DNA of 64,000 nucleotides from Chloroflexota bacterium (GCA_964291655.2 OZ219802.1:1984001-2048000), one strand, 5' to 3'. Counted from the first letter of the stretch, positions 15,479 to 57,768 are shown. Program-made: numbers and translations. The notes: a model not told the origin generated them from the letters alone.

Positions 15479-15764
15479 TAGTAAGCCCTCCTTTCGAGGA
15501 ACAACAGCGGTGGCATCGGACCGGCGACGCCGTCCGCTGCGATAAGGGTGGGTCAAGAGGCTCTGGTTGTTTCCTCATTTGGGAGGAGCGACTGCTCCTA
15601 AAGTGACGCAGCTTTACTCTCCTTTGGATGGAGCTGCTGCCCGTCGACTTTCCCCCTTCTGCCTGCGGACGTGACCGTTGTCCACTGACGTGAAGCACAC
15701 TGTTTGTCTTTGGGGCGAAGCGGCTGCTCGTCGCCAAGACCATCTTTCACCCTCTCCCTTGATG

Positions 15765-16293
15765 GAGACCTTTGCATAACCATCGCCACAGCGCGGATGT
15801 CCCCTCTCCCTCGACGGGAGAGGGCTAGGGTGAGGGTGAATCTCCTGAAGTCTCTCCATTTGCACACCGATTCTGCCCTGATACGTCTTGACACTGCCCA
15901 GCGTAAAGGGCCATCGTAGCAAAAAGACCCCCTCACCCCAACCCTCTCCCCTGTACAGACCGGGGACATAGGTAACAGTTGTTCGGGGACATGGGTTACA
16001 CATTTTACTGATTGACACCTACGAGAGCATTGGGTTGGTCCGGGTTTGATAAGAGACTGGCGACACAGTGCACTCACTTTCAGCCTGTCAGCTTGTGCCA
16101 GAGAAACAAACTGTGTGCATAAGGATATTGAGCGGATCTAACTTTCAAGGCAAGGACATCGCATACTACGAAAATCCCCTCGTTCTATGGTGTAACCTAT
16201 GTGCCCGAACATGTGTAACCCATGTACCCGGTCTATACACTCCCCCAGGAGAGGGAGTGCTCCTGCTTGAAAGTGGGGTTATGCAAAGGTCTC
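15765..16293. mobile_element. GAGACC-ended MITE containing a nested IS481-derived MITE
   Basis: TIR GAGACCTTTGCATAAC / GTTATGCAAAGGTCTC; flanking direct repeat CTTGATG (15758-15764, 16294-16300). Confidence 0.85.
15952..16239. mobile_element. 288-bp non-autonomous IS481 derivative (MITE, copy 1)
   Basis: TGT...ACA ends; right 51 bp identical to reverse complement of IS481 left end at 40147; TSD CTCCCC. Confidence 0.92.
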
Positions 16294-16490
16294 CTTGATG
16301 GGAGAGGGCGGGGGTGAGGGTGATGCGTGACGTGACAAACCCCCGTCCGGCCATTTCAGAATGCGGATTACCTAGCCCTGCGCATGGGTGCGGGGCACAA
16401 AACAGCCAGTATACGCGGCAGGCGAAATTCGTAAAGAATCCGTCCAGAAAGCCCCGTTTTGGCGGCACATGTGCGTGTGTACCGTCAAGG

Positions 16491-16499
16491 TGGTATACT
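16491..16499 (+). promoter_or_regulatory. Extended -10 promoter TGnTATACT
   Basis: TGGTATACT upstream of a short structured region and terminator. Confidence 0.5.
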
Positions 16500-16554
16500 G
16501 TTAACACGATTGAGACAAGCTGCGGTGTGTTGCAATCACTGACATGACAAAACA

Positions 16555-16590
16555 AAACACCCGGGCGATTGACCCGGGTGTTTATTCATT
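16555..16590. terminator. Bidirectional intrinsic terminator
   Basis: 11-bp stem AAACACCCGGG / CCCGGGTGTTT with A-rich and T-rich flanks. Confidence 0.8.
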
Positions 16591-16626
16591 TAACGACAGA
16601 GAGAGTGGCTGGTACTTACTTTTCCA

Positions 16627-16986
16627 TCAAGAACCGGACCCTACCGGCACCTCTTCTTGCATAACCAGATACACGGCGTCGGCCAACACGCGGTCTCGCA
16701 TGTGGGGCTTGATGCTGCGGAAGGTCGTGACGTCCACTCTACGCCCAAAGAGGTCTTCTAAGAAAAAGCAGAGGTCCATGTAGCCTACCAGCGTCAGAAA
16801 CGATTCGGCCAACTCTACCAGCACATCCACGTCACTCTGCGGAGTGGCCTCATCTCGTGCCACCGACCCATAGAGCGCGATCTTCTCTACGCCGAGACGC
16901 TTGAGTTGCGCGCGGTTTGCTGCGAGCATGCGCAGGGCGTGTGAACACGTTAGCGTTCTTGGCGACCTCTTTTTGGAGGTCATCAC
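16627..16986 (-). CDS. Minimal nucleotidyltransferase (MNT, MntA-like antitoxin), no adjacent HEPN partner
   Basis: LYGSVARDEATPQSDVDVLVE, LEDLFGRRVDV. Confidence 0.88.
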   Translation of the reverse strand: MMTSKKRSPRTLTCSHALRMLAANRAQLKRLGVEKIALYGSVARDEATPQSDVDVLVELAESFLTLVGYMDLCFFLEDLFGRRVDVTTFRSIKPHMRDRVLADAVYLVMQEEVPVGSGS

Positions 16987-17136
16987 TTACCTTCCCACAG
17001 CGTAGTAGAGACCAAACCCATTCCGCAGAGTACGTAACCGCCCTTTTCTTCCTGGCAGTTTATACTCCTGCGTTTGTCATCCTACTCAGGATAGTGTAGT
17101 AATCATACTTGAAGGATCGGAAAATCAAGCATCACA

Positions 17137-17433
17137 ATGGACGTACGCTTCGCGGACAACGCCCAAGCAAGATTGGAGACCGAACTTTCTTTTCGTGGAA
17201 AATGGCCGCGAGCGGTAGTGAGAGCGTTTCGCAAACGTATGCAGGCTATACGCGCAGCCTCCGACGAGTGGGTATTCTACCGTATGAAGTCCTTTCACTA
17301 CGAGAAATTAGCAGTCGCGCGCAGCCATCAGCACTCTATGCGCTTGAATAACCAATTCCGGCTAATAGTTGAGTATGAAGGAAAGCCGCCCAATAAGATT
17401 GTCGTAGTGATTGCGATCGAAGACTATCACTGA
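17137..17433 (+). CDS. higB: HigB/RelE family toxin (plasmid maintenance system killer)
   Basis: HYEKL...R..QHSMRLNNQFRLI, C-terminal IEDYH. Confidence 0.88.
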   Translation: MDVRFADNAQARLETELSFRGKWPRAVVRAFRKRMQAIRAASDEWVFYRMKSFHYEKLAVARSHQHSMRLNNQFRLIVEYEGKPPNKIVVVIAIEDYH

Positions 17434-17462
17434 GATAGCAGCAAAGAGGAGGGCACTATCAC

Positions 17463-17762
17463 ATGCCCAAGAGGACGGTAGCTGAGGCGTTTCCACCTGG
17501 GGAATTCATACAGGACGAACTGGAGTCTCGCGGTTGGTCGCGCACCGACCTGACAAACATCATGGGTCGTACTGCGCGCCTCATAGATGAGATCATCGCT
17601 GGCAAGCACTGCGTTTCACCGGACATAGCCAGAGAACTTGGCGATGCGTTCGGCACGGGCGCGGACTTCTGGCTGAACCTCGAAGCAGCGTATCGACGTC
17701 ATACGCCGTTGCAGACAGGGGATCATGGCAACCGCCGGCAGGAAGAGCGGCAGGTCGTGTAG
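17463..17762 (+). CDS. higA: HigA family HTH antitoxin
   Basis: AEAFPPGEFIQDELE.RGWS, FGT.ADFWLNLE. Confidence 0.88.
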   Translation: MPKRTVAEAFPPGEFIQDELESRGWSRTDLTNIMGRTARLIDEIIAGKHCVSPDIARELGDAFGTGADFWLNLEAAYRRHTPLQTGDHGNRRQEERQVV

Positions 17763-17771
17763 GCCGCGGTC

Positions 17772-21248: not shown

Positions 21249-21337
21249 CTACGCTGTTTCCTGCATCAATGCGAGGTTCCCAATGCACGTCGCAATAGCT
21301 AATCGGTATTGAGGGCGGACCGCAGGAGTTCTTGTGT

Positions 21338-22719: not shown

Positions 22720-22816
22720 CTGAATACCTGGATTAGCTTTTCAATACGCATATCTTTTTGAGGATTCCCCTCACGCCCGTTTCGAGTACGGGGCAGGCTC
22801 TAACCCTCTCCCCCAG

Positions 22817-23050
22817 GAGACCTTTGCGCAACTCAAGCGGTAGCAAAATAGTTCCCTCTCCCTCGACGGGAGAGGGCTAGGGTGAGGGTGGATCTCCTGA
22901 AATCTCTCCATATGCACACCAAATCTGCCCTGATACGTCTTGACACTGCCCAGCGTAAAGGGCCATCGTAGCAAAAAGACCCCCTCACCCCAACCTTCTC
23001 CCCCAGGAGAGGGAGTGCCCTGCTTGAAAGTGGGGTTATGCAAAGGTCTC
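22817..23050. mobile_element. GAGACC-ended MITE (uninterrupted version of 15765..16293)
   Basis: Same TIRs; TSD CCCAG; interior largely matches 15765..16293 without the IS481 MITE. Confidence 0.87.
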
Positions 23051-23392
23051 CCCAGGGAGAGGGAACCGGAAAACGTAGCGCGGGGGCGTGTCCCCCGCTC
23101 CGGTAGCTAGTTGCCCCGCACAGGAAGATGGATTCCCGCTTTCGCGGGAATGACGAATCAAAACTCCGACTTACCCGACAAATTCCATTGTCACCCAATG
23201 GCGTTGGCTCCGTTCGTGGCCCAGGGGCGTGTCCCCCGCTCTTGTTCACCTTCAGCAAGCACCATCTCAAGTGTCTTAAGGACTCCCCTCACCCTAACCC
23301 TCTCCCCAAGGAGAGGGGATCAGAGGCCATGGCGTGGGGGCGTGTCCCCCGCTCTGGTGCATCTTCAGCAATCACCGGCACGAAATTCGCAT

Positions 23393-24313: not shown

Positions 24314-24537
24314 CCGGTAGCGCAGGTTTGCAACTTGTGGGTACTCCCGGGTAGCGCAGTTCAGCAACCGGCAGTCCCATCCGGCAAGGCAGGTCCGGGT
24401 CACCAACACCTTCCGGTAGCGCAGGTTTGTAACCTGCGGGTACTCCCGGGTAGCGCAGTTCAGCAACCGGCAGTCCCATCCGGCAAAGCAGGTCTGGGTC
24501 ACCAACACCTTCCGGTAGCGCAGGTTTGTAACCTGCG
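24314..24537. repeat. 99-bp tandem repeat (~2.3 copies) built on GTAGCGCAGGTTTGTAACCTGCG palindromes
   Basis: CCGGTAGCGCAGG recurs every 99 bp with near-identical intervening sequence. Confidence 0.9.
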
Positions 24538-27409: not shown

Positions 27410-27665
27410 TGTAGATGTCAGGTAATTCGTTGACAGATTTGAGAACAAAAGCAGCTGAACGCAGTACTCTACATGAACAGTACACATGTCATTCCGAGCG
27501 GAGCGTCGAACCCTGTTCGCGGAATCTAGGGCCCATGCAACGTGTCGCCCAATAGGCTCAACATCTTAGATTCCTCTCTTCGCTGCGCTCCGTTCGGAAT
27601 GACATGATCTGTCAACACTGCCAATTTGGGAGAGAATTCTGTCAACGAATTACTCAACACTTACA
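27410..27665. mobile_element. MITE, TGTAAGTG-ended family (copy 3, inverted)
   Basis: Same TIRs; TSD GCAAT at 27405-27409 and 27666-27670. Confidence 0.83.
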
Positions 27666-28140
27666 GCAATGACCAATGGGTAGAGGCACGACCTGTGGTG
27701 CCCCTCACCGCGTCCGGCCCTTCCGGTAGCGCAGGTTTGCAACCTGCGTCCGCCGGCGTGCTGACCCCTCTTGTCGATTTACGTGACAAGTATCAGGCAT
27801 GAACTTGGCGCCACGCCAAGCTGGGTCCGATCACGACACGCGCAAATCTGCGACCGTCATCGCTGCGACCCTGCGCCGGGTTCAGGACAGGCAAGGGCTT
27901 CGCGCAGCACGCAGCACGAACGGACTTCTCGGTCTGTGGAGTCTTGGAGATGCCGCCCCCTAAGCAAGACGATACCCCGTTGGCCGGCCATGCCTCTGAG
28001 TCGGATTCATGGTTAAATGTGGGATGCGTTCGCCCGCCTTCGCTACAATAGGGACGGAAGGCGGGCCGCAAGACATGCCGTGGATCAGACGACGCTGAAA
28101 TGCGGAGCAAGCGAAGGGTCACATTGGAGGGGAATCAACC

Positions 28141-30813: not shown

Positions 30814-30922
30814 GGCGCGTTACTCCTGTGACGAGCTATGGATGGGGAGTGGGAGACACGTTAGGATGTCCTAGCCCTCCCCCGGTATCAAGTACGGGGC
30901 AGGCTCTAGCCCTCTCCCACGG

Positions 30923-31147
30923 GAGAACTTTGCAAAACCCTCGCCACAGCGCGAATGTTCCCTCTCCCTCGACGGGAGAGGGCTAGGGTGAGGGTGAATC
31001 TCCTGAATACTCTCCATAGCATACCAATATTTGATCTACTACATCTTGACACTGCACTAGCGCAAGGGGCCATTGCAACGTAAAGATCCCCTCTCCCCGG
31101 GGAGAGGGAGATTCTCTCGCCTACAGGTGAGTTATGCAAAGGGTCTC
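30923..31147. mobile_element. GAGACC-ended MITE (diverged copy)
   Basis: GAGAACTTTGCAAAAC / GTTATGCAAAGGGTCTC; TSD CACGG. Confidence 0.78.
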
Positions 31148-31549
31148 CACGGGGAGAGAGATTACTCCTGCTACCCGGCGTGTATATTATGGCTTCCTAG
31201 ACTCGGAATCCAATGTCTTTGCGCAACATGGGAAGTTTGCAGCGCGGGAGACAAGCCACAATCGTGTCGCATCAAAGTAGCGCGGGGGCTTGTCCCCCGC
31301 CAGAGCAAAGGGAACAGGCATGGAAAGGATTGACCTTACAGGAACGCAGGTTGCAAACATGTCCTGAGCCTGTCGAAGGGCCTGCGCTACCGGGGATAGG
31401 AGGCACGGTGCTCGGCGCCACTATGTTTGATGCGACAACATTGGGGACAAGCCCCCGCGCTACGGGAATTTAAGAGTGCCTACCCTTTTGGTCCAGGGTG
31501 CAACTGCCAAGCTTTCGAATGGTTCGGCTCGTTGGGCTGAAACTATTCG

Positions 31550-32521
31550 TCAGGCGCACACGGGATGGTCGGCGGACCAGCGGTTGAAGTTCTCGGTAGA
31601 GGAGGCGGCCAGTTTGGGTCGGGCGTCTTCCCACATTTGGGTCCACATTGCGGCATCGCGCAGCTCCGATTCAGGATTGGCGCGGCTGCGGGCCACGAAC
31701 TCGGGGAAGACCGGTCGCCCGGTAGGCTGGCCGACCGGCTGATAGCGCAGGTCGAAACTCCAGCGCACCTGGTCCTGGGTCTTGTTGTCGTACGAACAGT
31801 GCATGGTCTTGCTGTGCATGAGCAGAATGCTTCCCGCTTGCATGGGCAACGGTACAGCGTTCGCCACGTCCACAAGTTTTTCCGGTATCCAGACGCCGCC
31901 GACGCCCGGGCAGTGTACGGCGAGCTCTTCTTCCCGGTGCGAGTAGGGCACCACGTACATGCAGCTATTCTCGATGGTGGCATCGTTCAGGGGCAACCAC
32001 ACCGTCAGCATCTCGGTTTCGTCCGCCTCTTCCACCACCACGCCGTTGTCCTGGTGCCAGGGCACAGCCACGGAAAGATTGCTCGGATTCTCCACGTGGA
32101 CGACGTGACGCGGCAGCTTCATGCGCACGTGCTGCACGGGGTTGGAGAGGATTTCAGGCCCCACGACGCTCTCCGCGCAATCGAGCAAACGCGAGTTTAC
32201 GAGCAGATTGAAGACGGCCGGGCCGGTGTGCATCGGCGCGTCGGCCCCTATGGCTTTCTGCGGCAGTGAAATGTCAAAAGGCTGGGCAAAAATCTGGCCG
32301 CTTTCGTCGCAGACTTGAATAAGCCGCTGGTCGAACGGCAGGTCGGCATACGTAGAAGAAATGACGCCCTCTGCGTAGAGATCGCGGGCGATACCGTCCA
32401 GCACGTCGGCATATTCCGCCATCACCGGCGCCAGGTCTTCTTCCGGATCGAGGACGTTTTCTACGACAACGTAGCCTTGTTCAGTGAGTTGATTGAGTTG
32501 CGCTTGCGTCAAGCCGGCCAT
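31550..32521 (-). CDS. Phytanoyl-CoA dioxygenase (PhyH) family protein
   Basis: PWHQD, TVWLPL.DAT.EN.C, MHCS, RWSFDLRY. Confidence 0.93.
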   Translation of the reverse strand: MAGLTQAQLNQLTEQGYVVVENVLDPEEDLAPVMAEYADVLDGIARDLYAEGVISSTYADLPFDQRLIQVCDESGQIFAQPFDISLPQKAIGADAPMHTGPAVFNLLVNSRLLDCAESVVGPEILSNPVQHVRMKLPRHVVHVENPSNLSVAVPWHQDNGVVVEEADETEMLTVWLPLNDATIENSCMYVVPYSHREEELAVHCPGVGGVWIPEKLVDVANAVPLPMQAGSILLMHSKTMHCSYDNKTQDQVRWSFDLRYQPVGQPTGRPVFPEFVARSRANPESELRDAAMWTQMWEDARPKLAASSTENFNRWSADHPVCA

Positions 32522-32964: not shown

Positions 32965-33933
32965 TTAGGCGCACGCGGGGTGATCGGCGGACCAGCGGTT
33001 GAATTTCTGTTCAGCGGAAGCGGCCAGACGAACCCGCGCATCTGCCCAGAGCTGCTCCCACGCGGCGGCGGAACGGAGTTCCGTATCAGGGTTGGCGCGG
33101 CTGCGGGCCACAAAGTCAGGGAAGACCGGGCGGCCGCTGGGTTGTCCGCTCGGGTGGTAGCGCAGGTCGAAGCTCCAGCGCACCTCGTCCTCTGTCTTGT
33201 TATCGTACGAGCAGTGCATGGTCCGGCGGTGCATGAAGAGCACGCTGCCGGCCTGCATGGGCAGCGGCACGGCCTTCGCCACATCCATCTGCTCTTCCGG
33301 TATGCTCAGGCCGCCGGTGCCCGGGCAGTGCACGGCGAGGCCGTCCCGATACGAGTACGGCACGACGTTCAGGCAGCTATTCTCAATGGTGGCATCATTC
33401 AAGGGCAGCCACACCGTGAGCATTTCCGTTTCATCCGCCTCAGTTACCACCACGCCGTTATCCTGGTGCCAGGGAGTGGGGCCGGCGAGGCCGCTCGACC
33501 CCTCCGTATGCACGGCGTGGCGCGGTAACTTCATGCGCACGTGCTGTATCGGATTGTTGAGGATTTCCGGCCCCATGATGCTCTCGACGCAATCGAGCAG
33601 GCGGCGGTTGATAAGCAGGCTAAAGACGGCCGGGCCGGTGTGCATGGGCGCGTCGGCGCGCTCAGCGCTCTGCGGCAGGGAGATATCGAATGGCTGGGTG
33701 AAGAGCTGGCGGCTCTCGTCGCAGATGTGAATGAGCCGCTGATCGAACGGCAGGTCGGCATAGGTGGAGGAAATGACGCCCTCGGCGTGCAGGTCACGGG
33801 CGATGCCGTCCAGTACCTCGCCGTATTCCGCCATCACCGGCGCCAGGTCTTCCGCCGGATCGAGCACGTTTTCCGCGACCACGTACCCTTGTTCAGCAAA
33901 TTGATCGAGCTGTGCTTCGGTTAGACCGGCCAT
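32965..33933 (-). CDS. PhyH family dioxygenase, tandem paralog of 31550..32521
   Basis: Same motifs, collinear along full length; start trimmed to MAGLTEAQ. Confidence 0.93.
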   Translation of the reverse strand: MAGLTEAQLDQFAEQGYVVAENVLDPAEDLAPVMAEYGEVLDGIARDLHAEGVISSTYADLPFDQRLIHICDESRQLFTQPFDISLPQSAERADAPMHTGPAVFSLLINRRLLDCVESIMGPEILNNPIQHVRMKLPRHAVHTEGSSGLAGPTPWHQDNGVVVTEADETEMLTVWLPLNDATIENSCLNVVPYSYRDGLAVHCPGTGGLSIPEEQMDVAKAVPLPMQAGSVLFMHRRTMHCSYDNKTEDEVRWSFDLRYHPSGQPSGRPVFPDFVARSRANPDTELRSAAAWEQLWADARVRLAASAEQKFNRWSADHPACA

Positions 33934-34687
33934 GGTGTGCTGCTCCTGGACTTCCCGTGCAAGCCGCTTGCACGTGCGCTGGCGCCCGCTGCTACTTCCG
34001 GGGCTACTTACCCTCTTCTCCCAAGGTTGTACCAAAATAATGCATCCAAAGCAATCTTGGCAAGACTGCAAGGGAGTAGTGAGGAGCGGGGACTGAGCCC
34101 CAATGTTGTCGCATTAACTTTCTTGGCAAGGAAAATGGAGCTCTCATTACCTTACAATTCCGGTAGCGCAGGCCCTTCGACAGGCTCAGGACGGGCCCTT
34201 CGGCAGAGCCTGTGCTGATCCTGCCGAAGTGCTCAGGACAGGTTTGCAACCCCGTATCGAGTACGGGGCAGGCTCTGCGCCTTTTGTAGGGTCAAGCCCT
34301 CGCGCACCCGTTTCTATCAGTGGAAGTGTTAGAGCCACGCCTTGTGCTGCTGATGTGGTCGCAGTTTCGCGTGCTCTGGCGGGGGACAAGCCCCCGCGCT
34401 ACAATGAGCAGCCCTCTCCTTGTCGCTAGGGTGGCCAACGAACTGCCTTGGTAGCGCAGGTTTGTAACCTGCGTCCCCAGCCCGTCACTTCCGCGCAAAG
34501 CAGGAATCCAATTTCCCTTCTCACGCGGTGCGCGTTGCTATCGGTTGAGCGGGCCGGTGGCGTTGAGCTCGTAGCTAGACTTGGCAGCGTTCTGCGCAGA
34601 GCGCTGCCCTTTGCAACGAATCGTTCGCGCCCAAGTCGCGGAATGGCATTAGAATGAATTAAGGAAGAAAGAGAGGGGAGAAATCCT

Positions 34688-35909: not shown

Positions 35910-36022
35910 GGCGTACTGCGCACGTCCTTCGCGTCACCTCAACGGCGGCGCTCTACCGACAAGATCGCTGGGCATTCACTATCGTGTATGTACCGTATTT
36001 AGCCTACCAACATCCGAATCTT

Positions 36023-36305
36023 GTAACGCAGGGGGCTTGTCCCCCGCCACTTGGCGCACACCATTTGGGTCGCGCAAGTCTTTGGCAAATGCGTTCACCC
36101 AGACAAGCTGACTTCGCATTCCAGTGTCACCCGAACCCAATCCCGGCTCTCGTAGCGCGGGGGCTTGTCCCCCGCCACTTGGCGCACACCATTTGGGTCG
36201 CGCAAGGTCTTGGCGAATGTGTTCACCCAGACATGCTGACTGGGCATTCACCAGTGTCACCCGAACCCAATCCCGGCTCTCGTAATGCGGGGGCTTATCA
36301 TCCGC
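36023..36305. repeat. ~130-bp tandem repeat (2+ copies) each starting with GTAGCGCGGGGGCTTGTCCCCCGC
   Basis: Units at 36023, 36152, 36282. Confidence 0.88.
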
Positions 36306-36485
36306 CTCTTGGCGTCAAATTCAAGCGCCCCTTTGGAAGAAACATGCCTTGCGCTCGCGGCATTGGTTCATCTTGCGACCCTTCGGCAAAGCCTGTACTT
36401 AGCCTATCGCAGCGTTCTTGCCGCCGTTCGTGTTGCGTTCTTACCCCCGTTCGCGCTGAGCCTGTCGAAGCGCTGTTCCAGAGAT

Positions 36486-38139: not shown

Positions 38140-38287
38140 CCCTCAGTCTGTGTCGATGAATTCAGTGTGGTCTATTTTGTGCTGCCACTTATTATTGCGC
38201 GTGTGGCTGGTCTATGGGAGCCGTGGCTGCCACCAAGCAATTCAAGCTCTGAGTCTTAAAGACCCCTCACCCTAACCCTCTCCCCCG

Positions 38288-39931
38288 GAGGGTGTCTCAA
38301 AAATAGATCTACTGGATATATACTGGTGTGAAGAGAAGCAAGGTGAGGTTGTGGGATAGTTTGTAGAGAGGTAGTGACGATGCCGTTGAGACCGTTTAGT
38401 CGTGAACAGGCCTGGCTGTTGCCGCCGACGCTGGACGAACTGATCCCGGACGACCATCCTGTCAGGTTTGCGGCAGCGTTCGTGGACAGCCTCGATGCTG
38501 CGGCCTGGGAGGCGATGGAGATTGACCTGCAAGGCGATCCGCGTGGCGCCGGGGCCTACCATCCGCGCGCGCTGCTGGGCGTATGGGTCTACGGCTTCAT
38601 GACCGGCGTGCGCTCGAGCCGCAAGCTGGAGGCAGCCTGCCGGGATCAGGTACCGTACCTGTGGCTGGTGGGGATGCAGCAGCCGGACCACAACACGCTG
38701 TGGCGCTTCTACAAGGCGCACCGCGACCGGATGCGGACGCTGCTCAAGCGCACGGTGCGCACGGCGGTGCGAGCCGGCCTGGTGGAGTTGGCAATCCAGG
38801 CGGTGGACGGCACCAGGATCGCGGCCAACGCCGGGACGCGGCATACCCACGACGCGCAGGGGCTGCAGCGGCTGTTGTCCCGCACCGAGCAAGCGATCGC
38901 GGACCTGGAGGCGCAGAACGCCACGGGGGGCGACGCGCCGCCAGCGACTTTGCCGCAGGAACTTGCCGATGCCCAGGCCCTGCGGCGGCGGGTGGACGAC
39001 GCGCTCGCCCGCGTCGCGGCTGAGGACGGGCCGCGCTACACGAACCTGACTGATGCGGACGCGGCCCTGCTCAAGACTGGCATGGGTGGCTTCATCACCG
39101 GCTACAACGCCCAGGCGCTGGTCTCCCCTCTTGCGTCCCCGGACGAGGGCGCAGGGGGGAGGTTGATCACAGCCGTGGACGTGAGCGCCAGTGCCGACGA
39201 CCATCCCCACCTGGCGCCGCTGATCGAGGCGGCGCAGGAGAACATCGACGCCGCGCGGGACGTGGTGACCGTTGCGGACGCCGGCTACCATTCGGGGGCC
39301 AACCTCGCCACGTGCCACGCCGGCGGCCACACGGTATTGATGCCCACGACCCACGAGCGCAGACGCCGCAACCCCTACCATAAAGACCACTTCACCTACC
39401 GTCCAGAGACCGACACCTACCTGTGTCCCCAGCAAAAGGTGCTCACCTACACGCACCGCTTGACCCACAGCAACGGCTACCGGGTCAAGCGGTACCAAGC
39501 CAACGGCCGGGACTGCAGAACCTGTCCGGCCTTCGGCGTCTGCACCTCCTCCCAGAGGGGCCGCTCCATAAAGATCAGCGCCTACGAGCCAATACTGCAA
39601 CGGCACAGGCAGTTGATGGCCACCGCGCCTGCCAAGCAGGTGTACCGCCGCCGGAGTACCATCGTCGAGCCGGTCTTTGGCCTGCTCAAGGAGTGGCACA
39701 GTGCCAGGCGCTTCCTGCTCAGAGGCCGCAGCCACGTGACGTCCGAATGGCACCTGCTGGCCACCGCGTTCAATCTCAAGAGCCTCCACGCCCTGTGGCG
39801 GTCTGGGTGTAGTCCAGCGTCGCCCCGGGGACGAGTCTCTCACTGGCACCGTCTTGTTCATACCACCCGCCATCTGTCTGTCCTTCTCACCCCATTCACC
39901 GTGCCCCGCACCAAAATATTGAGACAGCCTC
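38288..39931 (+). mobile_element. IS1182-family insertion sequence, copy 1 (1644 bp)
   Basis: TIR GAGGGTGTCTCAA / TTGAGACAGCCTC; TSD CCCG. Confidence 0.93.
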
Positions 39932-39966
39932 CCCGGGAGAGGGAACCGGTCAGTCTGTGTCGGTGA
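38374..39966 (+). CDS. IS1182-family DDE transposase
   Basis: LLPP.LDELIP.DHP, YHPR.LL, SSRKLE, PDHNTL.RF, VDGT.I.ANA, TD.DA, GYNAQ, ADAGY, RR.TIVEPVFG..K. Confidence 0.93.
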   Translation: MTMPLRPFSREQAWLLPPTLDELIPDDHPVRFAAAFVDSLDAAAWEAMEIDLQGDPRGAGAYHPRALLGVWVYGFMTGVRSSRKLEAACRDQVPYLWLVGMQQPDHNTLWRFYKAHRDRMRTLLKRTVRTAVRAGLVELAIQAVDGTRIAANAGTRHTHDAQGLQRLLSRTEQAIADLEAQNATGGDAPPATLPQELADAQALRRRVDDALARVAAEDGPRYTNLTDADAALLKTGMGGFITGYNAQALVSPLASPDEGAGGRLITAVDVSASADDHPHLAPLIEAAQENIDAARDVVTVADAGYHSGANLATCHAGGHTVLMPTTHERRRRNPYHKDHFTYRPETDTYLCPQQKVLTYTHRLTHSNGYRVKRYQANGRDCRTCPAFGVCTSSQRGRSIKISAYEPILQRHRQLMATAPAKQVYRRRSTIVEPVFGLLKEWHSARRFLLRGRSHVTSEWHLLATAFNLKSLHALWRSGCSPASPRGRVSHWHRLVHTTRHLSVLLTPFTVPRTKILRQPPREREPVSLCR

Positions 39967-40146
39967 ATTCAGTGTGGTTGCCTAACCATTGCCCCTACTT
40001 GTCGCGCCTGTGGCTGGTCTTCGAAAGCCGCAACCGCCTCTTGGCAGTGTACTCCCTTTCAAAAAGAATCCCCCTTACCCTAGCCCTCTCCCTCGGGAGA
40101 CCTTTGCGCAACTCCGGCCGGAGGCGCAAGAATTACCCCCTCTCCT

Positions 40147-41411
40147 TGTATAGACCGGGTACATGGGTTACACATGTTCGGGCACATAGGTTACACCTTA
40201 AGGCATGGAGATTCTTACAGATGGAGGAGCGCCATGCCTTGGAAGGAGAGTACGGTTGTGTCTGAACGCAAGGAGTTCATTGCACTGGCACTGATGGAAG
40301 GGGCCAACATCAGCGAGCTGTGTCGCCGTCTGGAGATCAGTCGCAAGACGGCGTACAAGACGCTGGAGCGGTATGCGAAAGCTGGCGAAGACGGTTTGCA
40401 CGACCGGTCGCGGCGGCCGCACACGTGTCCGCACCGCACGCGCCCGGCGCTGGAGGAGCGCATCATCGCCTTGCGCCTGGCGCATCCGAAGAAAGGCGCA
40501 CACGTGCTGCGCCGGATGCTGCAGGACCAGGGGGTCACCGACGTGCCGGCCAAGAGCACCATCAATGCCATTCTCAAACGCCATGGGCTCATCGATCCAG
40601 CCCAGAGCGCCAAGCACACGCCCCATGTGCGCTTCGAACGACCCCAGCCCAACGAGCTGTGGCAGATGGACTTCAAGGGACATTTCGTCATGCAGCAGAA
40701 CCGCTGTCATCCTCTCACCCTCCTAGACGATCACTCCCGCTTCAACCTCGGGTTACAGGCCTGTGCCAACGAGCGGGGAGAGACGGTCCAAGACCGCCTC
40801 ACCGCTGTCTTTCGCCGCTACGGCTTGCCCCAGGCCATGCTCATGGACAACGGCTCTCCCTGGGGTAACGACAGTGCCCAGCCCTTCACGCCCCTCACCG
40901 TCTGGCTCATGCAGCTGGGCATCAACGTCCTGCACAGCCGACCCTACCATCCCCAGACACTCGGCAAGCTGGAACGCTTCCACCGCTCCCTCAAGAGCGA
41001 ACTGCTGGCAGGGACCACCTTTACCGACCTGGACCATTGCCAGCGCGCCTTTGACACCTGGCGCCACTTCTACAACTTGGAACGCCCACACCATGCCCTC
41101 GATCTCGACACTCCCATTACCAGATACACGCCTAGTCCTCGCCCTTTCCCAGAGACCTTGCCTGCCCTCGCCTACGCTCCCGACGACCGCGTACGCAGCG
41201 TCGATGTCTCCGGCCGCATCTCCTTCCAAGGCAGACGGCTCCGTGTGGGCAGGGCCTTCACGCACAAGCAAGTCGCCCTGCGACCCACCCGAACGGACGG
41301 TGTCTGGGACGTGTACTTCTCGATCCAAAGAGTAAAAACCATAGACCTCAGAGCACAAAATGTGTAACCTATCTACCCGAACATCTGTTACCTATGTCCC
41401 CGGTCTGTACA
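40147..41411 (+). mobile_element. IS481-family insertion sequence
   Basis: TGT...ACA ends with ~50-bp imperfect TIR; TSD CTCCT. Confidence 0.93.
40234..41367 (+). CDS. IS481-family transposase
   Basis: MPWKE, ISRKT.YK, LWQMDFKG, DDHSR, DNGSPW, HPQTLGKLERFH; SD GGAGG. Confidence 0.95.
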   Translation: MPWKESTVVSERKEFIALALMEGANISELCRRLEISRKTAYKTLERYAKAGEDGLHDRSRRPHTCPHRTRPALEERIIALRLAHPKKGAHVLRRMLQDQGVTDVPAKSTINAILKRHGLIDPAQSAKHTPHVRFERPQPNELWQMDFKGHFVMQQNRCHPLTLLDDHSRFNLGLQACANERGETVQDRLTAVFRRYGLPQAMLMDNGSPWGNDSAQPFTPLTVWLMQLGINVLHSRPYHPQTLGKLERFHRSLKSELLAGTTFTDLDHCQRAFDTWRHFYNLERPHHALDLDTPITRYTPSPRPFPETLPALAYAPDDRVRSVDVSGRISFQGRRLRVGRAFTHKQVALRPTRTDGVWDVYFSIQRVKTIDLRAQNV

Positions 41412-41737
41412 CTCCTTGGGGAGAGGGTCGGGGTGAGGGGTCTTATCTGCTTTGCATATCGTAAAACATGTACAGTCAATCATATTAGAGCCAATCCGGT
41501 CAGGAAGTTGCTCGTGCTCAGAGCAGTTTCACCCTCACCCCCGTATCACGTACGGGGCAGGCTCTAGCCCTCTCCCGTCAAGGGAGAGGGGACAATCTCC
41601 CTTCCACATGGGTTTTGCAAAGGTCTCCTCAGGGAGAGGGAATCGGAGGAGAAACGTTCACTTACACCCTTGTCCTCTCTTCCTGGAGACTGAGACGAGG
41701 AACTGCAAATTCCGACCTGCACCGGCAGTCCATAGTG

Positions 41738-45635: not shown

Positions 45636-46227
45636 ACGTGCTTCCTTGCCGCACGAAATCCGCGCTCTTGCCACCAATATACCCTTGCTCAACATCCGCC
45701 CGAAGCACGAGAGGTCTCCGCTCTCCTTGGGGAGAGAGGGCCGCCGCGAAAGGATCCTGGCTGGTACGGTTCATCATCCCTACGGAGACTCTGCGGCCTG
45801 TGTGAAACAGGCAAGACTACGGAAACTCTCCCTCGCCTCCCGTTTCGCGTGCGGGGCGGGCAGCTAGTGCTCACCCGCCGGAGCGCCTTGCATGACCCTT
45901 GCCCAGGCGAGATAGCCCCCTCTCTCCCTCCTGCTGGGCGAGAGTCGGGCTGGGGGGATTTAGAACGGCTTCACGGCTACTACCTACCCCCCCCTCCTGG
46001 ATTCCGGCTTGCGCCGGAATGACGGATGTTTTCAAAGTCCTCCTCGACAGGAGAGGGTTAGAGCCTGGTCCGTACTCGATCCAGCGTTTCGACACGAAAC
46101 GGGGGTGAGGGTGAATCTCCTAAAATCTCTCCGAATGCAAATCGATTCTGTTCTCATATGACTTTACACGTCACAAATCAAAGGGACATTGTAGCTGCGA
46201 GTCCCCCTCACCCCAGCCCTCTCCCCC

Positions 46228-46515
46228 TGTACAGACCGGGGACATAGGTAACAGTTGTTCGGGGACATGGGTTACACATTTTACTGATTGACACCTACGA
46301 GAGCATTGGGTTGGTCCGGGTTTGATAAGAGACTGGCGACACAGTGCACTCACTTTCCGCCTGTCAGCTTGTGCCAGAGAAACAAACAGTGTGCATAAGG
46401 ATATTGAGTGGATCTAACTTTCAAGGCAAGGACATCGCATACTACGAAAACCCCCTCGTTCTATGGTGTTACCTATGAGCCCGAACAACTGTTACCCATG
46501 TCCCCGGTCTATACA
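46228..46515. mobile_element. 288-bp IS481-derived MITE (copy 2)
   Basis: Near-identical to 15952..16239; TSD CCCCC. Confidence 0.92.
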
Positions 46516-46731
46516 CCCCCAAGGAGAGGGAGGTATTCTCGCCTGCAAGTGAGTTTCGCAATGGCCTCCGCTGGGGGAGGAGACTTTCGCGCCTCGGCAA
46601 AGTTCTTGCACGAGTCTCCTGCGGGAGAGGGGGCCTTTAATCCAACAGAAGTCTGTTTATTTCCGCCGCGTCGTGCTGATGGCTTGGCCCCCGCAGGAGG
46701 ATGCGTTCTCAGGTAGTGCCTCCACCGAGAA

Positions 46732-48322: not shown

Positions 48323-48564
48323 TGTAAGTGTTGAGTAATTCGTTGACAGAATTGAGAACAAAAGCAACCTTTCGCAGTGTTAGACATGACTAGTACACAT
48401 GTCATTCCGAACGAAGCGCAGCGAAGAGAGGAATCTAGTGTGCTGAAGCCGTTAAAGTGCGTTGAGCAGGGACCCTAGATTCCTCGCTCCGCTCGGAATG
48501 ACATGCACCGTCAACTCCTCAGAATGGAAAGCGGATTCTGTCAGCGATTTACCTGACACTTACA
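48323..48564. mobile_element. MITE, TGTAAGTG-ended family (copy 4)
   Basis: Same TIRs; flanks GTCATTCC / ATTTCCGAGCG. Confidence 0.8.
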
Positions 48565-48792
48565 ATTTCCGAGCGGAGCGTCGAACAGGGTTCGCGGAAT
48601 CTAAGGTGCTTCCCCCACAAGTTTCGCTGCTATTTGGGAACGGTATGCACTACTCGTGCCGTTTGTGATGAATGGTCAAGGGGCAAAGGGCAATAAGGCG
48701 TGAGAGGTTGAGCGCAAGGCTGATTAAGGTCTACGATAGGAATGAGTTCTCTCATTACGTCTCGATGATAATTTGCAAAGAGGCACACTGTC

Positions 48793-49759: not shown

Positions 49760-50177
49760 TGTAAGTGTCAGGTGATTGGTTGACAGATTTGGTAGGCATT
49801 GTCGGTGGTACCAACGTCATGTTTGACCACATCACATGTCATTCCGAACGAAGCGCAGCGCAGAGAGGAATCTAAAGTGCTAAGCCAAACAGACACGCTC
49901 GACGTGAACACTAGATTCCGCGAACTCTGTTCGACACTGCGCTCGGAATGACATTAGTTGTCAACGCAATCTAGAAGTCAGGAGAATCTGTCAACGAATT
50001 AGTCAGCATTTACAAATCCGAACGAAGCGAAGTGAAGTAAGGAGTCTAAGATGTTGCGCCTTTTACGCGACATGTAGCATGGGCCCTAGATTCCTCGCTG
50101 CGCTTGGAATGACATGAACTGTCAATACATCAAGTGGAAGGGGAAGGGTCTTAGCAACGAATTGCTCAATATTTACA
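49760..50177. mobile_element. MITE, TGTAAGTG-ended family, composite with one left end and two right ends (50014, 50177)
   Basis: Outer flanks GGAAT / GGAGT within a GCGGGAAT-GACGG palindrome arm; inner right end followed by AATCCGAACG. Confidence 0.7.
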
Positions 50178-52013: not shown

Positions 52014-52019
52014 AACTGT

Positions 52020-52310: not shown

Positions 52311-52615
52311 TGACTGCCGACGGTATCAAGGTAAGAATGACCCCCTCGCATCCAGGGGAGTTCATCCGTGCGGAGATCATCGAGCTGTTGGGTCTGAACG
52401 TGGCCAAGACCGCCGGCATCCTGGGTGTCCGGCGCGCCACGCTCTCAGACTTGCTGAACGGCAACGCGGCGCTGTCACCCGAAATGGCGCTGCGGATCGA
52501 GAAGGCGTTTGGCGTAAACATGGACATGCTGCTGCGAATGCAGGCCTGGCATGATGCCGCGCAGATGCGCGCCCGGGCAGATGAGATTAGAGTTGAGCGC
52601 TATCAGCCCGCTTGA
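52310..52615 (+). CDS. higA: HigA family antitoxin
   Basis: PSHPGEFIR.EI, LSPEMALRIEKAFG; TGATG coupling with higB. Confidence 0.92.
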   Translation: MTADGIKVRMTPSHPGEFIRAEIIELLGLNVAKTAGILGVRRATLSDLLNGNAALSPEMALRIEKAFGVNMDMLLRMQAWHDAAQMRARADEIRVERYQPA

Positions 52616-52732
52616 GCCGGCTGCTGACTCGACTGTCGCGCAAAGTGTTGTATGAGTCCTGACTGGGAAGAGGTCGGCTGGAATCGTCGCAAGCCGTAAC
52701 TCCCCAGTCATAGAAACAGGAGATGCCCCACC

Positions 52733-53890: not shown

Positions 53891-54022
53891 GCGGGCACGC
53901 TCTTGTTCAGCACAGATATAGCCAAATGGGCGAGCTGCAAGGGGCGGACAGCGTATTATTCCGAGAATGGGGCAATAGAGCACTCATCGCACGCAGAGCA
54001 GTCTGCCTAGTTTCGTCATTCC

Positions 54023-54276
54023 TGTAAGAGTTGAGTAATTCGTTGACAGTTTTGATAGGAATTGTCAGTGGTTTCACCGTCATGTACGACCACATCGCAT
54101 GTCATTCCGAGCGGAGTGCAGCGAAGAGTCGCTCGGAGCGCGGAATCTAAGATGTTGAGCCTATTGGGCGACACGTTGCATGGGCCCTAGATTCCTCGCT
54201 CCGCTCGGAATGACATGATCTGTCAACACTGCCAATTTGGGAGAGAATTCTGTCAACGAATTACTCAACACTTACA
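54023..54276. mobile_element. MITE, TGTAAGTG-ended family (copy 6)
   Basis: Same TIRs; TSD ATTCC at 54018-54022 and 54277-54281. Confidence 0.85.
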
Positions 54277-54529
54277 ATTCCGAGCGCAGCGTCGAACAGG
54301 GTTCGTTGACTTTGTCAAAGACGCGGAATCTAAAGATGCTGATATTGCGGGGATGTACTTTAGATTCCGCGCTCTCAGCGACACTTCGCTGCGCTCCGTT
54401 CGGAATGGCATGTGAAGTCGATTTATAGAATACATATCCCTGTCAGCCCACGGGGAGAGGCGACTTTCCCGTGCCGGCGAGGGTTAGGCAAAGGTTTCCA
54501 GAGGGGGAATGAATGACGCAGTTGTATTC

Positions 54530-55273
54530 TTAGGAAGCGGGCCGGATGAGCTTGCGCTGGCCGACGTCGGCCGAGGACGTGGCTTCCTGGTACGAGACGA
54601 TGAAGGCCTGGCGCACGTGGTCGGTGCTGTTGCCTTTGGAGTGGTGCCACAGCAGGCCGTGGAAGAGCAACATGGAGCCGGCCGGCAGCGGGACGGGAAT
54701 GGCGTGCTCGTTGGCGTATTCTTCGGGCGTGAGCTTGCGCACGCAGGCCCCATAGTCCATGACTTCGTAGTCCTGCAGTCCCCAGCGGTGACTGCCCGGC
54801 ACCACCCACATGCAGCCGTTGGCCTCGTTGGCGTCCTGGAGCGGCACCCAGATAGACATCCGCGTTTGGCTGAACGACTTGGGATCGTCGGGCCGCGTGT
54901 AGAAGGCCTCGTCCTGGTGCCAGTGGCAGACGATGTCGGAGTGGGGCACCTTGGAGACGAGTTTTGCGGAGTGAATGGCAATGCCGGGGTGCACAATATC
55001 CTCGATCAGGGACAGGATCCGTTCGTCGCGGGCGAAGTTGCTGATGAGCTCGGAACGCAGCCCCAACTGAAAAATCCAACCCGGCCGGTTTGCCATGGTG
55101 TCGCCATGCTCCGGCATGAGACGCTCGATCTCGTCGTTGAGGGTCGTGATGTCCTGGGACGGAAAGACATTATCTAAAATGACGAATCCCTGCTCGTCGT
55201 AGGTCTGAAGTTCCTGCGCACTCAAGGTGCGCAGAGGCTGGGTGCTCTCGTCTAGCGTCACTACCTTCGCCAT
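54530..55273 (-). CDS. PhyH family dioxygenase
   Basis: YDEQGFV, WHQDEAFY, WVPLQDA.E.NGC..VVPGSH, WHHS..N. Confidence 0.92.
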   Translation of the reverse strand: MAKVVTLDESTQPLRTLSAQELQTYDEQGFVILDNVFPSQDITTLNDEIERLMPEHGDTMANRPGWIFQLGLRSELISNFARDERILSLIEDIVHPGIAIHSAKLVSKVPHSDIVCHWHQDEAFYTRPDDPKSFSQTRMSIWVPLQDANEANGCMWVVPGSHRWGLQDYEVMDYGACVRKLTPEEYANEHAIPVPLPAGSMLLFHGLLWHHSKGNSTDHVRQAFIVSYQEATSSADVGQRKLIRPAS

Positions 55274-55709
55274 GCCGCACTTCCTTCATGAACCGACACG
55301 TCACACTGCACTGGGTAAGTCCTACCGCTTATTCCGCCGCTTGCCACCCAGGCCTTTCAGCATGAATTGGACAAACTCAATGGCCCGAAGGCCTGAAATC
55401 GCCCTCCCCGTAGCGTTCACGTACCACGGGAACAACCTCTCTGTCATTCACACTGGGTATTATACACAGAATTCCCGAATTCTTGGAATGTGACGTTGCG
55501 CCAATGATGACAAGAAGAATGACTACTAATGCCTACCTACCTTGCGGATGAGCGGGGAGCTTGCCTAGCACGTTTCCCGCTCTCTTGCGTGCACGACCGA
55601 GCTTGCTCCACTGGCAGCAGAGCTGTTTGCGCTAAATGACCCCTGTTACCGAGTGCGGAGCATGCGCGGATCTCCAGATCGAGGCATGGGCAGAGTCCGC
55701 ACGCGAGAA

Positions 55710-55929
55710 TTCTCCCTCTCCCGGGAGACGTATGCGCAACCAAGGCCGCCGGGCAAGAGTTCCCCTCTCTCCGGGAAACCCTTGCACAACCAGGCCTGCT
55801 CGCAAAGAGACCCCCTCTCCCTGGGGAGACCTTTGCATAACTAATCTGAATGCGAGAATATCACCCTCTCCCCGTGGAGACATTTGCGAAACTTCGGCTA
55901 GCGGCGCAAGAATTGCTCCCTCTCCTTGG
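55710..55929. repeat. Stack of four ~51-bp units, each a CCCTCTCC hairpin arm plus a GAGACC-MITE left end
   Basis: GGAGACGTATGCGCAAC, GGAAACCCTTGCACAAC, GGAGACCTTTGCATAAC, GGAGACATTTGCGAAAC at ~51-bp spacing. Confidence 0.7.
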
Positions 55930-57487
55930 GAGGCTGTCTCAATATTTTGGTGCGGGGCACGGTGAATGGGGTGAGAAGGACAGACAGATGGCGGGTGGTA
56001 TGAACAAGACGGTGCCAGTGAGAGACTCGTCCCCGGGGCGACGCTGGACTACACCCAGACCGCCACAGGGCGTGGAGGCTCTTGAGATTGAACGCGGTGG
56101 CCAGCAGGTGCCATTCGGACGTCACGTGGCTGCGGCCTCTGAGCAGGAAGCGCCTGGCACTGTGCCACTCCTTGAGCAGGCCAAAGACCGGCTCGACGAT
56201 GGTACTCCGGCGGCGGTACACCTGCTTGGCAGGCGCGGTGGCCATCAACTGCCTGTGCCGTTGCAGTATTGGCTCGTAGGCGCTGATCTTTATGGAGCGG
56301 CCCCTCTGGGAGGAGGTGCAGACGCCGAAGGCCGGACAGGTTCTGCAGTCCCGGCCGTTGGCTTGGTACCGCTTGACCCGGTAGCCGTTGCTGTGGGTCA
56401 AGCGGTGCGTGTAGGTGAGCACCTTTTGCTGGGGACACAGGTAGGTGTCGGTCTCTGGACGGTAGGTGAAGTGGTCTTTATGGTAGGGGTTGCGGCGTCT
56501 GCGCTCGTGGGTCGTGGGCATCAATACCGTGTGGCCGCCGGCGTGGCACGTGGCGAGGTTGGCCCCCGAATGGTAGCCGGCGTCCGCAACGGTCACCACG
56601 TCCCGCGCGGCGTCGATGTTCTCCTGCGCCGCCTCGATCAGCGGCGCCAGGTGGGGATGGTCGTCGGCACTGGCGCTCACGTCCACGGCTGTGATCAACC
56701 TCCCCCCTGCGCCCTCGTCCGGGGACGCAAGAGGGGAGACCAGCGCCTGGGCGTTGTAGCCGGTGATGAAGCCACCCATGCCAGTCTTGAGCAGGGCCGC
56801 GTCCGCATCAGTCAGGTTCGTGTAGCGCGGCCCGTCCTCAGCCGCGACGCGGGCGAGCGCGTCGTCCACCCGCCGCCGCAGGGCCTGGGCATCGGCAAGT
56901 TCCTGCGGCAAAGTCGCTGGCGGCGCGTCGCCCCCCGTGGCGTTCTGCGCCTCCAGGTCCGCGATCGCTTGCTCGGTGCGGGACAACAGCCGCTGCAGCC
57001 CCTGCGCGTCGTGGGTATGCCGCGTCCCGGCGTTGGCCGCGATCCTGGTGCCGTCCACCGCCTGGATTGCCAACTCCACCAGGCCGGCTCGCACCGCCGT
57101 GCGCACCGTGCGCTTGAGCAGCGTCCGCATCCGGTCGCGGTGCGCCTTGTAGAAGCGCCACAGCGTGTTGTGGTCCGGCTGCTGCATCCCCACCAGCCAC
57201 AGGTACGGTACCTGATCCCGGCAGGCTGCCTCCAGCTTGCGGCTCGAGCGCACGCCGGTCATGAAGCCGTAGACCCATACGCCCAGCAGCGCGCGCGGAT
57301 GGTAGGCCCCGGCGCCACGCGGATCGCCTTGCAGGTCAATCTCCATCGCCTCCCAGGCCGCAGCATCGAGGCTGTCCACGAACGCTGCCGCAAACCTGAC
57401 AGGATGGTCGTCCGGGATCAGTTCGTCCAGCGTCGGCGGCAACAGCCAGGCCTGTTCACGACTAAACGGTCTCAACGGCATCGTCAC
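55898..57487 (-). CDS. IS1182-family transposase
   Basis: Protein identical to 38374..39966 except last ~10 residues. Confidence 0.93.
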   Translation of the reverse strand: MTMPLRPFSREQAWLLPPTLDELIPDDHPVRFAAAFVDSLDAAAWEAMEIDLQGDPRGAGAYHPRALLGVWVYGFMTGVRSSRKLEAACRDQVPYLWLVGMQQPDHNTLWRFYKAHRDRMRTLLKRTVRTAVRAGLVELAIQAVDGTRIAANAGTRHTHDAQGLQRLLSRTEQAIADLEAQNATGGDAPPATLPQELADAQALRRRVDDALARVAAEDGPRYTNLTDADAALLKTGMGGFITGYNAQALVSPLASPDEGAGGRLITAVDVSASADDHPHLAPLIEAAQENIDAARDVVTVADAGYHSGANLATCHAGGHTVLMPTTHERRRRNPYHKDHFTYRPETDTYLCPQQKVLTYTHRLTHSNGYRVKRYQANGRDCRTCPAFGVCTSSQRGRSIKISAYEPILQRHRQLMATAPAKQVYRRRSTIVEPVFGLLKEWHSARRFLLRGRSHVTSEWHLLATAFNLKSLHALWRSGCSPASPRGRVSHWHRLVHTTRHLSVLLTPFTVPRTKILRQPPKEREQFLRR

Positions 57488-57573
57488 TACCTCTCTACAA
57501 ACTATCCCACCACCTCACCTTGCTTCTCTTCACACCAGTATATATCCAGTAGATCTATTTTTGAGACACCCTC
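55930..57573 (-). mobile_element. IS1182-family insertion sequence, copy 2 (1644 bp)
   Basis: Same TIRs inverted; TSD TTGG; near-identical to copy 1. Confidence 0.93.
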
Positions 57574-57768
57574 TTGGGGAGAGGGCTGGGGTGAGGGGAA
57601 TTCTTCACAATACCAACCCATTTGCGCGCAGTCGACGGGTATCGCAAGAGTCTCTAATTGGGGAATGGGCCGCAACGCGTTCCGGATTGGCCGCACTCAA
57701 GTCACCCTTGTGCTTGGTGCTGAATGGGGAGTCATGCTCTGGCGCTACATTCGTATGCAATACGTGTC

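Follow-up and report, generated by a model that had tools for sequence, protein, structure and literature searches.

Transposon nests on a BoxC-type palindrome in a Chloroflexota genome: four element lineages and four insertion registers

Insertion sequences (ISs) and MITEs (transposable elements of the miniature inverted-repeat kind) lie nested in one another in a 64,000-nt stretch of the genome of a Chloroflexota bacterium (GCA_964291655.2, OZ219802.1:1984001-2048000), hereafter the window, to whose first letter all unlabelled coordinates refer. We put a probability of roughly 70% on the reading that these are intergenic transposon nests built on a single dyad-symmetric repeat of the BoxC type, into which four lineages insert site-specifically, each in its own register. 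The lineages are an IS1182-family element, an IS5-family element represented by MITEs with GAGACC ends, an IS481-family element, IS481-A, and a second lineage that is probably of the IS481 type, IS481-B. An earlier note on this DNA had placed the elements inside the palindrome, and the window coordinates and duplications that it named were reproduced, degenerate MITE remnants excepted. Its further suggestion of a landing pad shared by at least three transposase lineages is borne out by IS1182, IS5 and the two IS481 lineages.

The core of the palindrome is CCCTCTCC-N4-8-GGAGAGGG. The genome (G000; 3.47 Mb in two contigs, C1 and C2) contains 161 intact copies; 80 of them have a 4-nt loop, 29 a 5-nt loop and 48 a 7-nt loop. 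Ten intact palindromes of the form CCCTCTCC-N3-9-GGAGAGGG fall in the window, compared with none across 100 shuffles. In 118 of the 161 copies a third block, GGGTGAGGG, follows the palindrome after a 3-nt linker. Knowledge of BoxC/PIT/TM repeats in E. coli goes back to the 1990s. Judged by its sequence, the palindrome with its third block is the same intrastrand-triplex motif, BoxC/PIT/TM_ECO. The published consensus, CCCTCNCCC, N3-6, GGGNGAGGG, N3, GGGNGAGGG (Holder et al. 2015, PMC4666352), has 48 strict matches genome-wide, of which the window contains 5, against none in 1 Mb of shuffled sequence. Moreover, of 5426 complete genomes of E. coli, 5403 contain matches to a 50-nt stretch of the window, at a median of 12 places per genome and with 90-95% identity over 42 nt, and an intergenic E. 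coli example has the same inverted pair of the motif. The K-12 laboratory strain has some 23 native BoxC/TM sites.

The palindrome was found in 16 of 16 congeners, in 7-291 copies, and some further families within the class have it too. Its orientations are mixed where replication-strand bias was checked, the GC skew being weak or flat. An Rfam scan of the window returned three tRNAs only, so the palindrome is not a known RNA family. A RAYT-associated origin, as for repetitive extragenic palindromes (REPs), was considered and rejected. The sole Y1_Tnp match, a single RAYT-like Y1 gene (G000 C2:2523481-2523714, minus strand, in an open frame of 276 aa), has no such palindrome at its flanks, and the ~1 kb around it contains no exact arm, only four 8-mers with one mismatch.

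Enrichment at the palindrome was checked over the whole genome. It holds 23 of 23 full-length IS1182 copies, 24 of 24 full IS481-A copies and 4 of 4 IS481-B copies, and one of its arms precedes 165 of 302 GAGACC ends. The features of the window on which the argument draws are these.

38288-39931, plus strand: IS1182 copy 1 (whole feature 38276-39943), loop and duplication CCCG, arms at 38276-38283 and 39936-39943
55930-57573, minus strand: IS1182 copy 2 (whole feature 55918-57585), in the 4-nt loop of the innermost tandem arm, loop and duplication TTGG
40147-41411, plus strand: IS481 element, transposase at 40174-41367, duplication CTCCT across the left arm/loop junction, loop TTGG
15952-16239, no strand assigned: IS481-derived MITE of 288 bp, 6-bp duplication CTCCCC at the arm/loop junction, nested in the second palindrome that the MITE at 15765-16293 carries
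46228-46515, no strand assigned: IS481-derived MITE of 288 bp, duplication CCCCC (split palindrome 46217-46530)
15765-16293, no strand assigned: GAGACC MITE of 529 bp, arms at 15750-15757 and 16301-16308, CTTGATG (7 bp) at 15758-15764 and 16294-16300
15802-15836, plus strand: intact strict TM_ECO/BoxC motif inside that MITE, comprising pyrimidine block, loop, purine block, 3-nt linker and GGGTGAGGG, with 90-95% identity over 42 nt to E. coli repeats
22817-23050, no strand assigned: GAGACC MITE of 234 bp (split palindrome 22804-23063), CCCAG, internal palindromes at 22854-22876 and ~22998-23013
30923-31147, no strand assigned: GAGACC MITE of 225 bp (split palindrome 30910-31160), CACGG, one mismatch in the right arm
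40097-41627, no strand assigned: GAGACC MITE (split palindrome 40084-41640), CTCGG/CTCAG, containing an intact palindrome at 41568-41590 and the nested IS481
55706-55929, plus strand: four tandem GAGACC left arms of ~51 bp, each ending in the left palindrome arm, a Russian-doll nest
23298-23317, no strand assigned: unoccupied palindrome with a 4-nt loop
915-938, 4164-4187, 31089-31108, 58837-58859 and 59018-59037: other intact palindromes

The IS1182 element was assigned by the curated equivalog model NF033551 (cut-off 270 bits), against which its transposase scores 364.9 bits; Pfam DDE_Tnp_1_6, DUF772 and DDE_Tnp_1 match as well. It is 1644 bp long with a single gene and terminal inverted repeats GAGGCTGTCTCA and GAGGGTGTCTCA. 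The 23 full-length copies are 99.8-100% identical, and two more are cut by contig ends. Both palindrome arms stand at 4 nt from the element in all 23, exactly in 22 and with one mismatch in the other, and 13 have an exact 4-bp duplication. Besides family A, the present palindrome family, 1317 perfect palindromes with an 8-bp stem were counted in the genome. A 4-nt loop occurs in 370 of them, compared with 80 of family A, although the figure of 370 overstates the unrelated palindromes as it includes shifted registers of family-A stems (e.g. CCTCTCCC, 75). None of the 23 IS1182 copies lies in any of the 370. It follows that sequence is read as well as shape. Moreover, both arms are needed, as none of the 47 copies of IS1182 and IS481-A taken together occupies any of the 139 solitary exact half-sites of the genome.

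Relatives of the element in other genomes, the nearest of which come from records naming Chloroflexota and Dehalococcoidia metagenome-assembled genomes, have both arms in 35 of 45 cases. An exact duplication is present in 16 of these relatives and measures 4 bp in 14; among 6 sites whose spacer has at least 5 nt, 5 still show 4 bp. Where the sites of relatives are not palindromic, the right flank still resembles GGAnAGGG.

The IS1182 transposase frames of the window (38374-39966, plus strand, and 55898-57487, minus strand) have no stop codon within the element. The frame of copy 1 continues beyond the element end at 39931 and takes in the duplicated loop and palindrome arm, and the open frames vary by copy from 454 to 624 aa. 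Both contigs end within IS1182 copies (C1 828441-830011, C2 2642393-2643963), the assembly thus breaking at IS1182, and in practice such nests are places where assemblies break. Copies of IS1182 and IS481 are clustered at ~0.4-2.4 Mb of C2, where the cumulative GC skew is flat, which may reflect IS-mediated rearrangement.

The IS481-family assignment was made with the curated equivalog model NF033577 (cut-off 224 bits). The transposase of the 1265-bp element scores 290.2 bits, and Pfam rve, rve_3 and LZ_Tnp_IS481 also match. The 24 full IS481-A copies are 86-100% identical, 11 of them at 100%. Twenty-three lie across an arm/loop junction and one at the outer edge; twelve copies have a 5-bp duplication, nine a 6-bp one and three none. 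The junction used is proximal to the third block in 9 copies and distal in 2, with blocks on both sides in 11, a small sample. The second, putatively IS481-type lineage, IS481-B, is ~1287 bp long and has four copies (G000 C2: 1707063-1708349, 1755174-1756460, 1906013-1907299 and 2408023-2409309). Its transposase is 55% identical to that of IS481-A over residues 15-394 and has one in-frame TAA per copy. IS481-B inserts at the outer foot of the arm and duplicates its outer 5-6 bp (CCCTC, GAGGG or AGAGGG). Among IS481 relatives elsewhere, the palindrome could be reconstructed in 15 of 24.

It could be supposed that insertion is random and that copies survive just where they do no harm, in the centres of MITEs. 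All nests of the window indeed lie between open reading frames, and the solitary half-sites are mainly within coding sequence. Nevertheless, the registers are exact to the nucleotide, the palindromes amount to a few kb out of 3.47 Mb, and the near-identity of the IS1182 copies, together with the 11 fully identical IS481 copies, indicates recent bursts with little time for purging. As a control, a different IS5-family element of the congeners (335-aa transposase) was followed; it survives at ordinary sites, with arms beside 0 of the 9 copies examined. Residence in the palindrome is therefore a property of particular elements and not of survival alone, and we consider a pure selection filter very improbable.

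Direct evidence on the target came from the closest congener, G008, whose flanks are 93-95% identical. The ortholog of the IS1182 copy 1 site (L238) is an empty palindrome, arm-CCCG-arm, and that of the 15765-16293 MITE site (L243) is an empty palindrome, arm-CTTGATG-arm. Thus the duplicated part is the 4-nt loop for IS1182 and the entire 7-nt spacer for the MITE, in line with the earlier claim that the hairpin loop is duplicated. Other orthologous palindromes are occupied in both genomes by different elements: one holds IS1182 copy 2 here and an IS481 end in G008, another holds IS481 here and a GAGACC MITE in G008. No empty IS481 site was met among the two orthologous sites examined in G008, both of which held GAGACC MITEs. 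The MITE at 40097-41627 is represented in G008 (L238) by a different GAGACC subtype with the same duplication CTCAG; the swap could be due to re-insertion after excision or to conversion between MITEs.

These sites also bear on the notion that the arms belong to the elements as extended terminal repeats, or that ready-made nests spread by segmental duplication only. Some hitch-hiking does occur, as four composites of MITE::IS1182 (1880-1884 bp) are each bounded by an outer duplication of their own. The empty sites with an intact palindrome largely refute this notion, however, and the same arms stand beside four unrelated elements, a variable duplication separates arm and element end, and IS1182 occurs in both orientations at the same MITE position. 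We find it scarcely credible. The sequence 16-60 nt off the IS ends falls into 19-22 context clusters per 23-24 copies of IS1182 and IS481-A, and such mostly distinct outer contexts indicate that most copies are independent insertions.

The GAGACC MITEs occur in forms of 98, 139 and 234 bp, with a median pairwise identity of 0.83-0.87 and a maximum of 0.98-0.99. Where an arm precedes the GAGACC end, it does so at an offset of 5 nt (109), 7 nt (22), 4 nt (14), 6 nt (8) or others. The MITEs also carry the palindrome themselves. An internal arm lies within 44 nt in 204 of 302 ends, and 95 of the 161 intact palindromes are at most 75 nt from an inward-facing end, compared with 53 of 5004 random positions. 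Folding of the 98-bp form gives a single long hairpin (-22 kcal/mol, z = -4.0), and the palindrome forms the tip. Because the IS5-type MITEs hold the palindrome at their centre or in their arms, each insertion would bring fresh targets, and nests would form in this way. The stack at 55706-55929 has just one matching right arm left (~57640-57655), and old degenerate MITE remnants with non-canonical flanks are also present, for example at 45881-46618 and as a solo end at 54498.

The source of these MITEs is absent from the genome itself. No GAGACC end with a unique coding interior was found, the only high-copy repeats above 600 bp are IS1182 and IS481, the matches to DDE_Tnp_1 (PF01609) above the cut-off are the 25 IS1182 copies only, and a search with the IS5-type protein of the congeners gave no match at E<=1e-60. 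By way of PF01609, the autonomous element was found in congeners. It measures 1217-1248 bp, has one gene of 326-339 aa and shares with the MITEs the target and the 16-nt end GAGACCTTTGC.TAAC, the ends being compared over the terminal ~18 nt. Three congener copies of its protein score 278-298 bits against NF033581 (cut-off 140), and the runner-up model, IS1182, gives 184-200, under its cut-off of 270. On these sequence criteria, the GAGACC MITEs derive from an IS5-family element that is absent here and present in congeners. Partial matches of the 139-bp MITE in congeners were also tried as a lead. In the eight that were followed, the neighbouring open reading frames belonged to ordinary host families or had no Pfam match (4 of 10 scanned), and no transposase family was matched. 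IS5 and IS1182 are related families, so IS481 alone is a clear case of convergence on the palindrome.

The relation between duplication and spacer was analysed in 30 GAGACC MITE pairs that retain the two arms and show an exact duplication no shorter than 4 bp. For 25 pairs, the spacer on each side and the duplication are equal (one of 4 bp, nineteen of 5 bp, one of 6 bp, three of 7 bp and one of 8 bp); in the remaining 5 the duplication exceeds the spacer by a single base, mostly with 5 bp where the spacer is 4 nt, and in no pair is it shorter. Autonomous IS5-type copies behave alike, with duplications of 4, 5, 6 and 8 bp in G004 and of 6 bp in G011, each equal to its spacer. The earlier proposal that duplication length tracks loop length hence survives for the GAGACC/IS5-type element of this genus (4-8 bp) and fails for IS1182 (4 bp) and IS481 (5-6 bp). 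Duplication following the spacer is true for one element in one genus and is no general rule.

We envisage that the transposases themselves read both arms. IS1182 makes a rigid cut with a 4-bp stagger within the spacer. The IS5-type element would cut the two strands where their respective arms meet the spacer and so duplicates the whole spacer of 4-8 bp. IS481-A duplicates 5-6 bp across the arm/loop junction and IS481-B the outer 5-6 bp of the arm. The flexible stagger of the IS5-type element could arise if two strand transfers are each positioned by their own arm, or if the target is a transiently extruded hairpin. Extrusion is offered as a hypothesis, since the single-stranded hairpins are modest (about -9 to -10 kcal/mol; z-scores between -1.4 and -1.9), and a stable triplex was seen neither in double-stranded DNA nor in vivo by Holder et al. 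2015 (PMC4666352).

The extreme form of this idea is that an extruded cruciform, hairpin or triplex is recognised and not the arm sequence, the third block easing extrusion. A spacer-following duplication of 4-8 bp would be hard to square with a rigid complex on B-form DNA, the triplex block accompanies most palindromes (118 of 161, as above), and IS1272/TnSha1 of the IS1182 family is reported to target hairpins without a sequence consensus (PMC4923244, PMC5678879). The earlier note had suggested possible recognition of the extruded hairpin or of a protein bound to it; IS1182 passing over 370 other palindromes points instead to sequence reading, and so do the GGAnAGGG-like flanks at its non-palindromic sites. 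With the weak hairpins and the triplex findings added, structure capture on its own appears unlikely.

Several observations weigh against the reading preferred here, in which sequence-reading transposases insert into one palindrome, and some of them favour structure. IS481 relatives occur in a similar register in two unrelated palindromes of similar geometry (L118, L145), which favours a structural component. Other IS5-type relatives use other palindromes, one in G042 with 6 bp and four in G031 with 6-7 bp. A distant IS5-type relative in G085 is fixed at 5 bp (12 of 12), nine of its copies adjoining one arm of a 7-nt spacer, off-centre. These relatives mean that the flexible stagger is lineage-specific and that the target rule is not one fixed sequence. 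Furthermore, 137 of 302 GAGACC ends have no recognisable arm, and at least 7 paired MITEs sit at non-palindromic sites with 5-7 bp duplications. Matching duplications are missing from 10 of 23 IS1182 copies, whose 4-nt flanks are mismatched, and exact ones from 6 of 12 paired autonomous IS5-type copies; these are accounted for only by assuming recombination between copies, of which mismatched flanks are the expected outcome. Selection within genes could add to the emptiness of the solitary half-sites. Finally, that the transposase and not a host factor reads the site is something we infer.

The host-factor alternative holds that a cellular protein on the BoxC-type repeat recruits unrelated transposases. 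The target is common to unrelated catalytic families (rve-type IS481 and DDE_Tnp_1-type IS5/IS1182), and conservation of the motif across phyla would fit a conserved binding partner. A register exact to the nucleotide for each element would nevertheless be easier to reach if the transposase reads the site directly, the analysis turned up no candidate protein, and the earlier work, as far as its accessible text goes, found the motif to act neither as promoter nor as terminator and gives it no role tied to a protein (PMC4666352). Tethering of this kind is accordingly regarded as improbable, and direct reading of both arms by the transposases is retained.

Some repeats and genes of the window stand apart from this system. 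Tandem repeats of 128, 99 and 100 bp at 35993-36314, 24314-24511 and 13422-13582 bear other hairpins (GCGGGGGCTTGTCCCCCGC; GCAGGTTGCAAACCTGCGC), and the CGCAGGTT palindrome family has ~70 perfect copies genome-wide. A further repeat family at 27410-27694, 48323-48567, 49760-50128 and 54023-54305, also at 10677 and 21844, is bounded by termini resembling TGTAAGTGT..GTAATTCGTTGACAG, contains a GTCATTCCGAGCG hairpin and is probably another MITE family. Two adjacent paralogues of PhyH-family dioxygenases with DNA identity of ~78% lie at 31550-32521 and 32965-34071 (minus strand).

A wider interpretation may be ventured, though it is rather doubtful at present: BoxC/TM repeats would travel as cargo of IS5-type MITEs within and between genomes and serve transposases of several families as structured landing sites, with a DDE transposase capturing the extruded hairpin or triplex. 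If true, cargo and landing pads would account for the cross-phylum distribution of the motif and for the instability of the TM loci of E. coli, and the spacer-following duplication would represent capture of a transiently extruded hairpin or triplex by a DDE transposase. This Chloroflexota genus offers a concrete candidate explanation for the mobility and instability of BoxC/TM, and the question of their origin and instability becomes testable. Moreover, related transposases acting on one site with a rigid 4-bp, a rigid 5-bp and a flexible 4-8 bp stagger form a natural series for studying how DDE enzymes position strand transfer.

Among known systems, the nearest are the REP-targeting ISs, namely IS1397 and ISKpn1 (IS3), IS621, ISPpu9/10 and ISPa11 (IS110), ISRm22 and ISPsy8 (Tobes & Pareja 2006, PMC1525189). 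As far as the accessible text of that paper extends, all or nearly all copies lie at one exact position of an abundant intergenic palindrome, insertion is at the symmetry axis with short duplications, mismatched ones being ascribed to recombination between copies, and one repeat can serve several IS families (IS3, IS110, IS4, IS256 and IS5 are named; PMC1525189). These features recur here. The differences are that the target is the BoxC/TM motif and not a RAYT-type REP, that the inserting elements belong to IS1182, IS481 and a subgroup of IS5, that MITEs from one of the invaders carry the target, and that one element duplicates a variable spacer of 4-8 bp.

A second comparison is with IS1272/TnSha1 of Staphylococcus (Furi 2016, PMC4923244; Wan 2017, PMC5678879), where an IS1182-family transposase targets inverted repeats or hairpins. 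The accessible parts of both papers give TnSha1 a transposase frame without its own stop codon, as in the IS1182 element here, and Wan 2017 (PMC5678879) draws a hypothetical pathway in which the loop alone is duplicated. IS1272 is described there as deleting the hairpin, with neither duplication nor sequence preference (PMC4923244, PMC5678879), whereas the present element leaves the arms in place, makes a duplication of exactly 4 bp and, in this genome, occurs in a single palindrome sequence only.

The flexible duplication has a parallel in IS1630 of Mycoplasma fermentans, an IS30-family element. In the work of Calcutt from 1999, whole target inverted repeats were reportedly duplicated, at varied sequences. 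Duplications of 16-26 bp are given in the accessible text of a later source (PMC3317919). In both cases the length of the duplication would be set by the target inverted repeat and not by the enzyme alone; IS1630 duplicates the whole inverted repeat, whereas the IS5-family enzyme here duplicates just the 4-8 bp spacer.

With the BoxC/PIT/TM_ECO repeats themselves, the Chloroflexota palindrome shares the three-block architecture and a near-identical sequence. According to the accessible text of Holder et al. 2015 (PMC4666352), the TM motif occurs in more than 260 genomes of many phyla, always between genes and frequently in inverted pairs, and TM loci are unusually variable; no transposase or integrase was ever met near TM, and the mechanism of instability "remains unclear". 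The motif of E. coli is thus described without an associated transposase, MITE or insertion, whereas in the present genome IS5-derived MITEs contain it and four element lineages insert into it. The earlier note knew of no such combination. That view holds in part, REP targeting by several IS families and hairpin targeting by the IS1182 family having been published; neither a link of BoxC/TM to transposons nor this Chloroflexota system was found in the literature outside most subscription journals and supplements, such as Holder's TM-locus tables, which are possibly relevant. What is new is BoxC/TM as a target, a target carried by the MITEs of its own invader, the use of one site by four lineages in four registers, and a duplication set by the spacer in the hands of an IS5-family enzyme.

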